From Escherichia coli (GTDB taxonomy: Bacteria > Pseudomonadota > Gammaproteobacteria > Enterobacterales > Enterobacteriaceae), in the NCBI RefSeq assembly GCF_017348835.2, contig NZ_CP071375.1: a DNA stretch of 64,000 bases; one strand, 5' to 3'. Each line of letters opens with the position of its first letter. Positions within the stretch are counted from its first letter, which is position 1. Under the pieces are notes generated by a model. The model searched no databases. It worked only from the letters and a program-made list of their open reading frames with translations, and was not told the origin of the DNA. Positions 10,131-50,275 of the stretch are shown here, piece after piece. The position numbers were made by a program, and so were the translations under genes.

Positions 10131-10214
10131 TTAATTTCGATTATTTTTCCCGGATGGAAAATTCTTAGAAACCGATCACATACAGCTGCATTTATTAAGG
10201 TTATCATCCGTTTC

Positions 10215-10301
10215 GCTGAAAAACATAACCCATAAAATGCTAGCTGTACCAGGAACCACCTCCTTAGCCTGTGTAATCTCCCTTACACGGGCTTATTTTT
10301 T
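10215..10301 (+). ncRNA. cyaR: CRP-dependent Hfq-binding sRNA CyaR (RyeE)
   Basis: Sequence GCTGAAAAACATAACCCATAAAATGCTAGCTGTACCAGGAACCACCTCCTTAGCC... ending in a hairpin and T-run matches my memory of CyaR, including the CCTCCTT anti-SD-like seed; located downstream of yegQ as in E. coli. Confidence 0.85.
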
Positions 10302-18583: not shown

Positions 18584-18698
18584 GCCGGATGCAGTGTAAA
18601 CATACGTGGCAGCGCTGTGTAGGCATGATAAGACGCTTCAGCGTCGCATCAGGCATAGGTTGCCGGATGCAGCGTAAACGCCTTATCCGTCCTACGGG
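18584..18698. repeat. BIME: cluster of three REP elements
   Basis: GCCGGATGCAGTGTAAACATACGTGGC / GTAGGCATGATAAGACGCTTCAGCGTCGCATCAGGCAT / GCCGGATGCAGCGTAAACGCCTTATCCGTCCTACG are typical REP consensus variants in alternating orientation. Confidence 0.75.
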
Positions 18699-26511: not shown

Positions 26512-26645
26512 AGTTTGCTCCTGCCATAACGTGAAGAAGCAATGACCTGGTGGTCCGTGACTTCCCTACGCTGGCATTATCCAGATCAGGTGATACGGGT
26601 ATTTCTCAGCCTTCACGCAGAAGGGCACCCCGAGTCGTTTGGTTG
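26512..26645 (-). promoter_or_regulatory. TPP (thi-box) riboswitch in the thiM 5' leader
   Basis: Minus-strand sequence CGACTCGGGGTGCCCTTCTGCGTGAAGGCTGAGAAATACCCGTATCACCTGATCTGGATAATGCCAGCGTAGGGAAGTC followed by the SD-sequestering platform and ATG matches the classical thiM aptamer. Confidence 0.9.
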
Positions 26646-48237: not shown

Positions 48238-48555
48238 ATGATCGTGCAAAAAGAGCTGGTTGCTATTTACGATTATGAGGTCCCTGTACCTGAAGATCCG
48301 TTTTCCTTCAGACTTGAGATCCATAAATGCTCTGAATTATTTACAGGTTCCGTCTATCGACTGGAGCGATTCCGGCTACATCCAACATTTCGTCAACGTG
48401 ATCGAGAAGATGCTGACCCGCTAATAAATGATGCGTTGATTTATATAAGAGATGAGTGTATTGATGAGCGGAAATTACGAGGTGAATCACCTGAAACTGT
48501 AATAGCAATTTTTAATCGTGAACTACAGAATATATTCAACCAAGAAATAGAATAA
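48238..48555 (+). CDS. yehK: Uncharacterized protein YehK (105 aa)
   Basis: 105-aa ORF; synteny. Confidence 0.75.
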   Translation: MIVQKELVAIYDYEVPVPEDPFSFRLEIHKCSELFTGSVYRLERFRLHPTFRQRDREDADPLINDALIYIRDECIDERKLRGESPETVIAIFNRELQNIFNQEIE

Positions 48556-48664
48556 TATACTCTAGATAATTCAAGTCGCAGCACATGCAACTTGAAGTAT
48601 GACGAGTATAGCTTTATTAAAGGGGGAAGCGGTTTTCCCCCTTAGATGCGTTTCAATTTGCCCG

Positions 48665-48754
48665 TTACTTCAACAAATCAATCAACCGTAACAGAGCTAC
48701 TAATAGCTCCAGTACAGCAATGAGCACGGTTAACTTTTGTGTCAGCGTGTCCAT
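48665..48754 (-). CDS. zorO: Type I toxin, ShoB/Zor-like small hydrophobic peptide (29 aa: MDTLTQKLTVLIAVLELLVALLRLIDLLK)
   Basis: Not in the ORF track (below size cutoff). ATG with AGGAGA SD 4 nt upstream; single predicted TM helix with charged C-terminus; about 175-nt 5' UTR; divergent antisense sRNA upstream. Symbol from my recollection of the EHEC zorO-orzO locus, unverified. Confidence 0.65.
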   Translation of the reverse strand: MDTLTQKLTVLIAVLELLVALLRLIDLLK

Positions 48755-48935
48755 CCGCTCTCCTTATTAAGGAGCGCAACACCAGCACCTTACCCTTACA
48801 CTGCCTGTCGATACTGGTTTACGTATGTTGGACCACGATGTTGCACTCCGGATCAGGGCACCACCTGCAGCACCACCCGTCCGGTAGCCAGGACTTGAAA
48901 TAGGTTCGATCCGGCGCAACGTCCCAACGGTCTGG

Positions 48936-48963
48936 ATTATAAATCTCATTATCTTAATTGCAA
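48936..48963 (-). promoter_or_regulatory. Sigma70-type promoter for the toxin mRNA (-35 TTGCAA, 16-bp spacer, -10 TATAAT)
   Basis: Hexamers read on the minus strand; -35 shares the palindromic TTGCAA with the divergent sRNA promoter. Confidence 0.5.
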
Positions 48964-48986
48964 CGGGGTCCAGCCGTGGTTATAAT
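48958..48986 (+). promoter_or_regulatory. Sigma70-type promoter for the antisense sRNA (-35 TTGCAA, 17-bp spacer, -10 TATAAT)
   Basis: Hexamers read on the plus strand directly upstream of the sRNA. Confidence 0.5.
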
Positions 48987-48992
48987 TCGTTC

Positions 48993-49075
48993 GTTGGAAC
49001 ACGATGTTGCACAGGCTGTGGTGTTAGGCCTGAAAATAGTAAATAAAAGAACCTGCCTCACCAGCAGGTTTTTTT
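48993..49075 (+). ncRNA. orzO: Antitoxin sRNA (OrzO/OhsC-like) divergent from the toxin gene
   Basis: Short transcript bounded by the promoter and a rho-independent terminator (CCTGC-ctcacca-GCAGG + T7 at 49053-49075); its first 20 nt (48993-49012) repeat 48827-48846 within the toxin 5' UTR with 19/20 identity, giving antisense complementarity. Confidence 0.6.
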
Positions 49076-49186
49076 ATTTACTGTGATCTGCTTTCCAGAT
49101 ATTTTTCGCTCAAACAACTAATGCGCCAAACATTTATTGCGCGTAAAATATCGTTTATTTCATTAATACATTTCAGGGATGAATAT

Positions 49187-50275
49187 ATGTCACCGCAGAA
49201 TAATCATCTGCAGCGTCCGCCTGCTGCTGTGTTATACGCCGATGAACTGGCAAAATTAAAACAAAATGATACCGCACCTTGCCCGCCCGGTTGGCAGTTA
49301 AGTTTGCCTGCGGCCCGTGCTTTTATCCTTGGCGATAGCGCGCAAAATATTAGCCGTAAAGTGGTGATTAGTCCCTCCGCTGTCGAACGTATGTTAGTCA
49401 CTCTTGCCACCGGACGCGGTTTGATGTTGGTGGGGGAACCTGGCAGCGCAAAATCTCTCCTGTCTGAATTACTGGCAACCGCTATTAGCGGCGATGCCGG
49501 GTTAACCATCCAGGGCGGCGCATCTACTACCGAAGATCAAATCAAGTACGGCTTGAACTACGCCCTGCTTATCAATCATGGTCCATCAACGGAAGCGCTG
49601 GTCCCTGCCCCGCTTTACCAGGGAATGCGCGACGGCAAAATCGTCCGTTTTGAAGAGATAACGCGTACACCGCTGGAAGTGCAAGACTGTCTGTTAGGTA
49701 TGCTTTCTGACAGGGTGATGACGGTGCCGGAACTCACTGGTGAAGCCAGTCAGCTCTATGCGCGAGAAGGCTTTAATATTATTGCCACTGCCAATACCCG
49801 CGATCGCGGCGTCAATGAAATGAGTGCTGCGCTAAAGCGTCGCTTCGATTTTGAAACTGTCTTTCCGATTATGGATTTCGTCCAGGAGCTGGAGCTTGTC
49901 GCCAGTGCTTCGGCGCGTTTGCTGGCCCATAGCGGTATTCCGCATAAAGTGCCTGACGCGGTACTGGAGTTACTGGTCCGCACCTTCCGCGATCTGCGTG
50001 CCAACGGCGAAAAGAAAACGTCAATGGATACACTAACAGCGATTATGTCCACCGCTGAAGCCGTGAACGTGGCCCACGCTGTGGGCGTCCGCGCCTGGTT
50101 TTTAGCGAATCGCGCAGGTGAGCCAGCCGATCTGGTGGACTGTATTGCCGGAACCATCGTCAAAGATAACGAAGAAGATCGCGCTCGTCTGCGCCGTTAC
50201 TTCGAACAGCGAGTCGCCATACATAAAGAAGCTCACTGGCAGGCTTATTATCAAGCCCGCCACCGCCTGCCGTGA
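49187..50275 (+). CDS. yehL: MoxR-type AAA+ ATPase YehL (362 aa)
   Basis: Walker A GEPGSAKS; MoxR/CbbQ-like; start at MSPQNNHLQRP. Confidence 0.85.
   Translation: MSPQNNHLQRPPAAVLYADELAKLKQNDTAPCPPGWQLSLPAARAFILGDSAQNISRKVVISPSAVERMLVTLATGRGLMLVGEPGSAKSLLSELLATAISGDAGLTIQGGASTTEDQIKYGLNYALLINHGPSTEALVPAPLYQGMRDGKIVRFEEITRTPLEVQDCLLGMLSDRVMTVPELTGEASQLYAREGFNIIATANTRDRGVNEMSAALKRRFDFETVFPIMDFVQELELVASASARLLAHSGIPHKVPDAVLELLVRTFRDLRANGEKKTSMDTLTAIMSTAEAVNVAHAVGVRAWFLANRAGEPADLVDCIAGTIVKDNEEDRARLRRYFEQRVAIHKEAHWQAYYQARHRLP

Follow-up and report, generated by a model that had tools for sequence, protein, structure and literature searches.

The zor-orz type I toxin-antitoxin system was first found in 2010 in Escherichia coli O157:H7 EDL933, where the yehI-yehL spacer carries Z3289/Z3290 and the associated sRNA-1 and sRNA-2 (PMC2887945); the two pairs were later renamed zorO-orzO and zorP-orzP (PMC3919570). 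According to the accessible text of the first report, the Orz transcripts measure about 85 nt on northern blots, and toxicity was also demonstrated for Z3290 (PMC2887945). ZorO is described as sitting in the inner membrane, where it depolarises the membrane and depletes ATP, and the peptides of the Zor family are said to have either the ZorO sequence or its T3S or A20S variant. OrzO rescues cells from zorO in a manner that needs RNase III and not Hfq, the first 18 nt of the sRNA being sufficient (PMC3919570). The zor leader is reported to be 174 nt long, with the ribosome binding site (RBS) AAGGAG at +164..+169 occluded in a stem and a so-called EAP region at +73..+102; 5' processing (delta-28) exposes the EAP region as a standby region and boosts translation, while OrzO additionally blocks translation at this region (PMC5397157).

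Three other divergently encoded type I modules of E. coli, tisB-istR1, shoB-ohsC and dinQ-agrB, share with zor-orz the divergent arrangement of toxin and sRNA, a short pairing site located well upstream of the RBS within a long leader, the 5' processing that makes the mRNA translatable and the standby-site logic, whereas their toxin and RNA sequences are unrelated to those of zor-orz. Expression of tisB and dinQ is governed by the SOS response through LexA; to our knowledge, no such regulator is known for zor. Another difference is that full-length zorO mRNA is reported to be still weakly translatable, unlike that of tisAB (PMC5397157).

In the window, by which we mean the whole 64-kb stretch of DNA analysed here, the chromosomal spacer between yehK (upstream) and yehL (downstream) almost certainly holds a single, intact zor-orz type I toxin-antitoxin module, which belongs by sequence to the zorP-orzP type and encodes a ZorO-type peptide. 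This reading draws directly on the sequence itself, family membership, complementarity, covariation across locus types and ORF conservation. The flanking genes were assigned from the window ORFs and from annotated homologous loci, and the spacer of 632 bp includes a single zor-orz copy, in which the sRNA gene lies divergent from the toxin gene at the published site. A preliminary description had proposed an unannotated type I module of the shoB-ohsC/zorO-orzO architecture at this position, and the architecture is borne out by a full-length match to Rfam family RF02083 at the yehK-yehL site. The word "unannotated" is true of the E. coli RefSeq records that we inspected, none of which annotates zor or orz, but not beyond them, as the system has been in Rfam and in papers since 2010. 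A scan of the Zor peptide against NCBIfam matched no family, and this missing model may be connected with RefSeq leaving the zor ORF unannotated. The locus is thus an already known system at its usual place, whose leader structure, sRNA and distribution in E. coli have all been published. Its main parts are as follows.

48665..48754, minus strand: zor toxin ORF, 29 codons plus stop, which translates to MDTLTQKLTVLIAVLELLVALLRLIDLLK, identical to ZorO.
48936..48963, minus strand: zor promoter, TTGCAA-16-TATAAT, from the consensus scan, with hexamers reported to be conserved in at least 99% of loci.
48755..48928, minus strand: zor 5' UTR of 174 nt, with the start put at 48928 on the basis of the -10 element and the UTR length reported in the literature.
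48958..48986, plus strand: orz promoter, TTGCAA-17-TATAAT, from the consensus scan and the published hexamers.
48993..49075, plus strand: Orz sRNA of the OrzP type, about 83 nt, with 5' seed, internal hairpin and terminator (Rfam RF02083).
49038..49082, plus strand: intrinsic terminator of orz, palindromic and with A and T runs on its flanks (scan, fold and Rfam structure line).

For the sRNA, a search of Rfam release 15 returned the OrzO-P family (RF02083) at 49000-49075 on the plus strand with 99.9 bits, compared with a gathering score of 60, and E = 1e-16; the match is full-length (model positions 1-76 of 76) and was repeated by an Rfam scan of the whole window. With the 5' end GUUGG and the definition of the V1 triplet taken from the published work, Orz is predicted to have an unpaired 5' seed and two hairpins, of which one is small and internal and the other forms the terminator, with a fold energy of -27.4 kcal/mol (z = -2.8). 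The sRNA terminator that had been placed near 49053-49075 is a real hairpin, found both in the fold and in the Rfam structure line; its arms (49038-49056 and 49064-49082) are 19 nt long and 95% complementary. A simple terminator scan lists it on the minus strand only, which is probably explained by the plus-strand stem running into its own T run, and since T or A runs stand on both sides the terminator is probably bidirectional. Three weaker Rfam matches were set aside: those to the Thr and Trp leaders at 49002-49078 score far under the gathering threshold and are explained by the terminator hairpin alone, and a minus-strand OrzO-P match of 25 bits is a product of the palindromic terminator.

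The 29-codon ORF with a strong Shine-Dalgarno (SD) sequence is present as first described, with AAGGAG (48760-48765, minus strand) 5 nt before the ATG. Its product is a hydrophobic 29-residue peptide equal to that of the yehK-proximal zor gene of O157:H7, and its residues D2, K7, E16, R23, D26 and K29 agree with the residue numbering of the ZorO mutants. In the 2024 survey the ZorO protein sequence is reported as the dominant one, accounting for 72.5% of zor ORFs. Residue 3 is Thr in the window, as in three other P-type loci that we extracted, and Ser in O157:H7 ZorP, so that the window peptide does not carry the T3S change by which the ZorP protein is distinguished from ZorO. Compared with the window, the ORFs of O-type and third-type loci differ by 1-5 synonymous and 0 non-synonymous substitutions, and T3S of O157:H7 ZorP is the sole amino-acid change among the zor ORFs compared. 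The small ORF is conserved across the loci compared, and the substitution pattern indicates that it is under purifying selection.

Both zor-orz pairs of O157:H7 EDL933 were then set against the window locus at the nucleotide level. The O157:H7 spacer is 1240 bp long and contains two copies, the yehK-proximal one encoding a peptide that begins MDT (ZorO) and the yehL-proximal one a peptide that begins MDS (ZorP, T3S). The window is 99.1% identical to the yehL-proximal copy over 574 nt, versus 89.7% for the yehK-proximal copy. In addition, the window sRNA reads GTTGGAAC-ACG-ATGTTGCAC, with ACG at nt 9-11, where the published V1 specificity triplet is ACG in OrzP and GAA in OrzO. With zorP-orzP (Z3290/sRNA-2) the window has in common the yehL-adjacent site, the 20-nt seed, V1 ACG, the target, the 6(1)13 pairing described below and identical promoters, RBS and 174-nt UTR; it differs in the peptide (Thr3 instead of Ser3) and in being a single copy, in contrast to the tandem pair of O157:H7. 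With zorO-orzO (Z3289/sRNA-1) it has in common the 29-aa peptide, the architecture, the promoter hexamers, the RBS and the UTR length, but the nucleotide identity is the lower of the two values given above and the seed differs at positions 6 and 9-11. Moreover, the OrzO duplex is an uninterrupted 18 nt with one G-U pair, whereas the window sRNA pairs over 19 of 20 nt around an internal mismatch. Judged from these sequences, the window locus is of the zorP-orzP type at the RNA level and ZorO at the protein level. The earlier match to EHEC ZorO was correct for the peptide, which is identical, while the RNA and UTR are of the zorP-orzP and not the zorO-orzO type. [quoted passage not shown]

The pairing between sRNA and toxin leader involves the following element.

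[quoted passage not shown]

The preliminary description had noted a 20-nt repeat with one mismatch and concluded that the sRNA is antisense to the UTR, which our search supports: the repeats at 48827-48846 and 48993-49012 differ at one position and are the only matches in the 64-kb window when up to 3 mismatches are allowed, with 0 occurrences in 100 shuffles. The same search found neither a second zor-orz copy nor a second Orz target in the window. Nineteen of the 20 nt pair, in a 6(1)13 pattern of 6 pairs, one A/G mismatch and 13 pairs, and the seed-target duplex reaches -32.7 kcal/mol compared with -15.9 +/- 2.3 (best -26.2) for 1000 shuffled sRNA 5' ends, none of which attains the observed energy. 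Copies of zor/orz were further extracted from nine other E. coli loci by a pattern-based procedure, which did not pick up locus L008; these loci and the window fall into three seed types.

P type: sRNA 5' end GTTGGAACACGATGTTGCAC; target (plus strand) GTTGGACCACGATGTTGCAC.
O type: sRNA 5' end GTTGGTACGAAATGTTGCAC; target (plus strand) GTTGGTACGAAACGTTGCTC.
Third type: sRNA 5' end GTTGGGGCGCCATGTTGCAT; target (plus strand) GTTGAGTCGCCATGTTGCAC.

Across the three types, sRNA positions 6, 9, 10 and 11 and the target change together with pairing kept, and since pairing survives changes on both partners, this covariation links two sites that are 166 nt apart. Position 7 of the sRNA is unpaired in the P and third types and paired in the O type. 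In the published mutational work, the requirement for repression was either an unbroken stretch of 15 paired nt or 17 nt with one unpaired base inside, and an OrzO 6(1)11 mutant that is unpaired at the position of the window mismatch represses fully. The 6(1)13 pairing of the window exceeds the 17 nt that suffice with one internal unpaired base, and by extrapolation from these engineered OrzO mutants it should be sufficient for repression. The third type was seen in two loci (L005, 654-673 and 820-839; L007, 651-670 and 817-836), both with a peptide identical to ZorO including Ala20. It may be the published zorQ-orzQ class, though the residue is Ala20 and not A20S.

Turning to the expression signals, a consensus scan of 48500-49250 found exactly two promoter-like sites, 48963..48936 on the minus strand and 48958..48986 on the plus strand, each matching 10 of the 12 consensus positions, and these are precisely the two promoters that had been proposed beforehand. 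Two sites are not above chance, the shuffles giving a mean of 1.7, and for this reason the promoter claim rests on the match to the published elements: the published conservation values (PMC11264685) list TTGCAA as the -35 and TATAAT as the -10 of both zor and orz, besides the RBS AAGGAG and an ORF of 29 codons, and the hexamers of both promoters, the RBS AAGGAG and the 174-nt leader of the window all equal the family values. A single palindromic -35 hexamer, TTGCAA at 48958-48963, serves both of these divergent promoters. The published conservation table gives equal percentages for the zor and orz -35 elements (PMC11264685), as expected if both elements are the same bases.

The toxin 5' UTR, previously estimated at about 175 nt, comes to 174 nt. 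Its predicted start at 48928 lies 8 nt beyond the -10 hexamer, and counted from there AAGGAG occupies exactly +164..+169 (48765-48760). Alignment of the leader with both O157:H7 copies and the third type needs no indels, so that its length is fixed at 174 nt. Three structured elements were assigned in the zor transcript.

48757..48777, minus strand: RBS-sequestering hairpin, in which AAGGAG (48760-48765) pairs with CUCCUU (48769-48774); inverted repeat I4.
48827..48856, minus strand: EAP region at +73..+102, a putative ribosome standby site with coordinates transferred from the literature.
48620..48643, minus strand: hairpin AAGGGGGAA-loop-UUCCCCCUU, 21 nt past the zor stop, with a nine-pair stem in the folds.

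The RBS hairpin is present in both predicted mRNA folds, and the RBS has a predicted unpaired probability of 0.07-0.12. A conserved GGAGTG motif lies inside the EAP region at 48844-48849 on the minus strand. In the fold of the full-length mRNA, the first ~21 nt pair with +74..+102 and the SD sequence is held in the CUCCUU/AAGGAG hairpin, in agreement with published probing. Removal of 28 nt changes the mean unpaired probability of the EAP region from 0.30 to 0.36, a small change in a thermodynamic prediction, which reproduces the published opening of this region after processing only weakly and does not conflict with the probing data. The 5' end of the leader (48908-48928, minus strand) and the sRNA (48993-49012, plus strand) are both predicted partners of leader +83..+102; in the model, the leader's own 5' end would mimic the antitoxin seed in cis. 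The hairpin at 48620..48643, which the simple terminator scan did not pick up, is the probable zor terminator as judged from the folds, albeit with a weak U tract.

The accessible literature demonstrates repression for OrzO on zorO; a direct rescue experiment with OrzP on zorP was not found in it, and we therefore infer repression by the window pair from this precedent. From transcription and processing to toxicity and repression, events in this strain would, by homology with O157:H7 zorO-orzO, proceed as follows. The minus-strand promoter would yield a zor transcript about 310 nt long, of which 174 nt form the leader. In the full-length RNA, the first ~28 nt would pair with the EAP region (+73..+102) and the SD sequence would be locked in its small hairpin, and because of these two structures the full-length mRNA would be poorly translated. 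Loss of the first 28 nt would open the EAP region as a ribosome standby site and allow the 29-residue peptide to be made, which, when overproduced, would insert in the inner membrane and cause depolarisation, ATP depletion and a stop of growth. The divergently transcribed Orz of ~83 nt would pair through its first 20 nt with leader +83..+102, block the standby site and trigger RNase III-dependent decay of the mRNA without Hfq.

The spacer also contains a 55-nt palindrome (48556-48610) directly past the yehK stop, with arms of 25 nt that are 80% complementary. It is a dispersed repeat, present at 5 places in the median E. coli genome, and the copy between dxs and yajO runs into AAGTAAGTGACTGGGGTGA, which we take to be the ERIC2 primer site; the palindrome looks like an internally deleted short ERIC/IRU element. 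We considered it as a toxin-antitoxin-associated element and rejected this, as its other copies stand in the unrelated spacers yafP-rtcB, speFL-speF and dxs-yajO. An isrH match at the same place (22 bits versus a gathering score of 45) is likewise due to the ERIC-derived palindrome. The other window Rfam matches above gathering score are all ordinary E. coli features.

10213-10298, plus strand: CyaR/RyeE sRNA (Rfam, 100.7 bits).
18622-18692, minus strand: naRNA4/CssrE, REP-derived (Rfam, 64.5 bits).
26546-26642, minus strand: TPP riboswitch (Rfam, 71.2 bits).

Among the neighbouring genes of the compared loci, yehM has an internal stop in O157:H7 strain MB9-1 (L001, 4174-5508), and in strains AH19E045 and LI60C3 the annotation marks yehK as frameshifted (L005, 1-232; L009, 1-310).

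The full locus was found in 3392 of 5426 complete E. coli genomes, about 63% (at least 80% of a 561-nt query), and the orz half in 5227 of the 5426 (at least 80% of the orz half). By these two counts about a third of E. coli are orz-only, and the published share is about 30% (PMC11264685). K-12 MG1655 belongs to this group: site, promoter hexamers and sRNA sequence are all the same as in the window, whereas the zor ORF, the target site and the leader beyond ~29 nt are missing and the spacer is 306 bp. The locus had been described as absent from K-12, which holds for zor but not for orz. The K-12 sRNA has been published as OrzPmg and confirmed by northern blot (PMC11264685). The zor deletion in K-12 (L004, 6291-6320) begins inside the ERIC remnant, in its left arm (..TAATTCAA), and reaches approximately position +29 of the zor leader (TTGAAAT), and its junction lies in a short near-identity patch, TTCAA/TTGAA (window 48567-48577 and 48892-48902; repeats D2 and I3), suggesting that a microhomology-mediated deletion created the orz-only allele. 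In strain VTB97448v (L010, 1581-1600 and 1734-1753), a full zor-orz is accompanied by a second, tandem orz ~153 bp downstream, a layout to which the "1.5 copy" state mentioned in the literature corresponds (PMC11264685).

The persistence of orz bears on an alternative that we regard as rather unlikely, namely that the module is real and its main role is other than toxin-antitoxin control: Orz may have further targets, or the zor transcript or its peptide may contribute to aminoglycoside tolerance by a route other than membrane depolarisation. An orphan orzP, conserved in promoter and transcript, persists and is expressed in K-12 without a zor target, which fits such a role, as does the report that cells with the non-toxic ZorO R23L variant still grew better in kanamycin. 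However, no further Orz target is known, and none exists in the 64-kb window at up to 3 mismatches; the aminoglycoside effect was, in the published experiments, seen only with multicopy plasmids, and a single chromosomal zor-orz copy is reported to give no kanamycin phenotype. In any case, such a role would add to the type I mechanism and not replace it.

Far less credible to us is that the window locus is a decaying remnant, in which the sRNA is made and the toxin is either unexpressed or unrepressible through the A/G mismatch at position 7. This view could appeal to the loss of zor with retention of orz in about a third of E. coli genomes and to the one mismatch that interrupts the seed-target pairing. 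But the ORF with its RBS and the Orz target site are all intact in the window, as are the two promoters and the two terminator hairpins, and ORF substitutions between types are synonymous only. The mismatch also occurs in O157:H7 zorP-orzP and, at the same position, in the third type, which makes it a conserved feature rather than fresh damage, and zorO is fully repressed by the OrzO 6(1)11 mutant with its mismatch there. We give practically no credence to an ordinary intergenic spacer with a small ORF and a repeat by chance: the number of promoter-like sites is within expectation and the peptide has neither an NCBIfam model nor a RefSeq annotation, but this reading is already refuted by the Rfam match (E = 1e-16), the covarying pairing sites, the absence of the repeat from 100 of 100 window shuffles and purifying selection on the ORF, and a homologous locus has been characterised experimentally.

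The intact zor-orz copy in the yehK-yehL spacer has little value as a discovery, since the locus is published and its sRNA is already in Rfam. It does illustrate that sequence-only scans will keep rediscovering zor-orz as long as neither gene is annotated in RefSeq records such as those we inspected, and that a paralogue may be named differently from its protein (here ZorO) than from its RNA (here orzP type). In the accessible literature, we found no discussion of either the shared -35 hexamer or the unpaired position 7. On the strength of these sequence features we would entertain, as an improbable but specific idea, that the shared -35 might couple toxin and antitoxin transcription reciprocally and that the position-7 mismatch might be selected to tune regulation. 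If this were true, RNA polymerase bound for one direction at the shared -35 would exclude initiation in the other direction, and the unpaired base at position 7 of the sRNA would not be neutral but selected to tune the strength of repression or RNase III cleavage.
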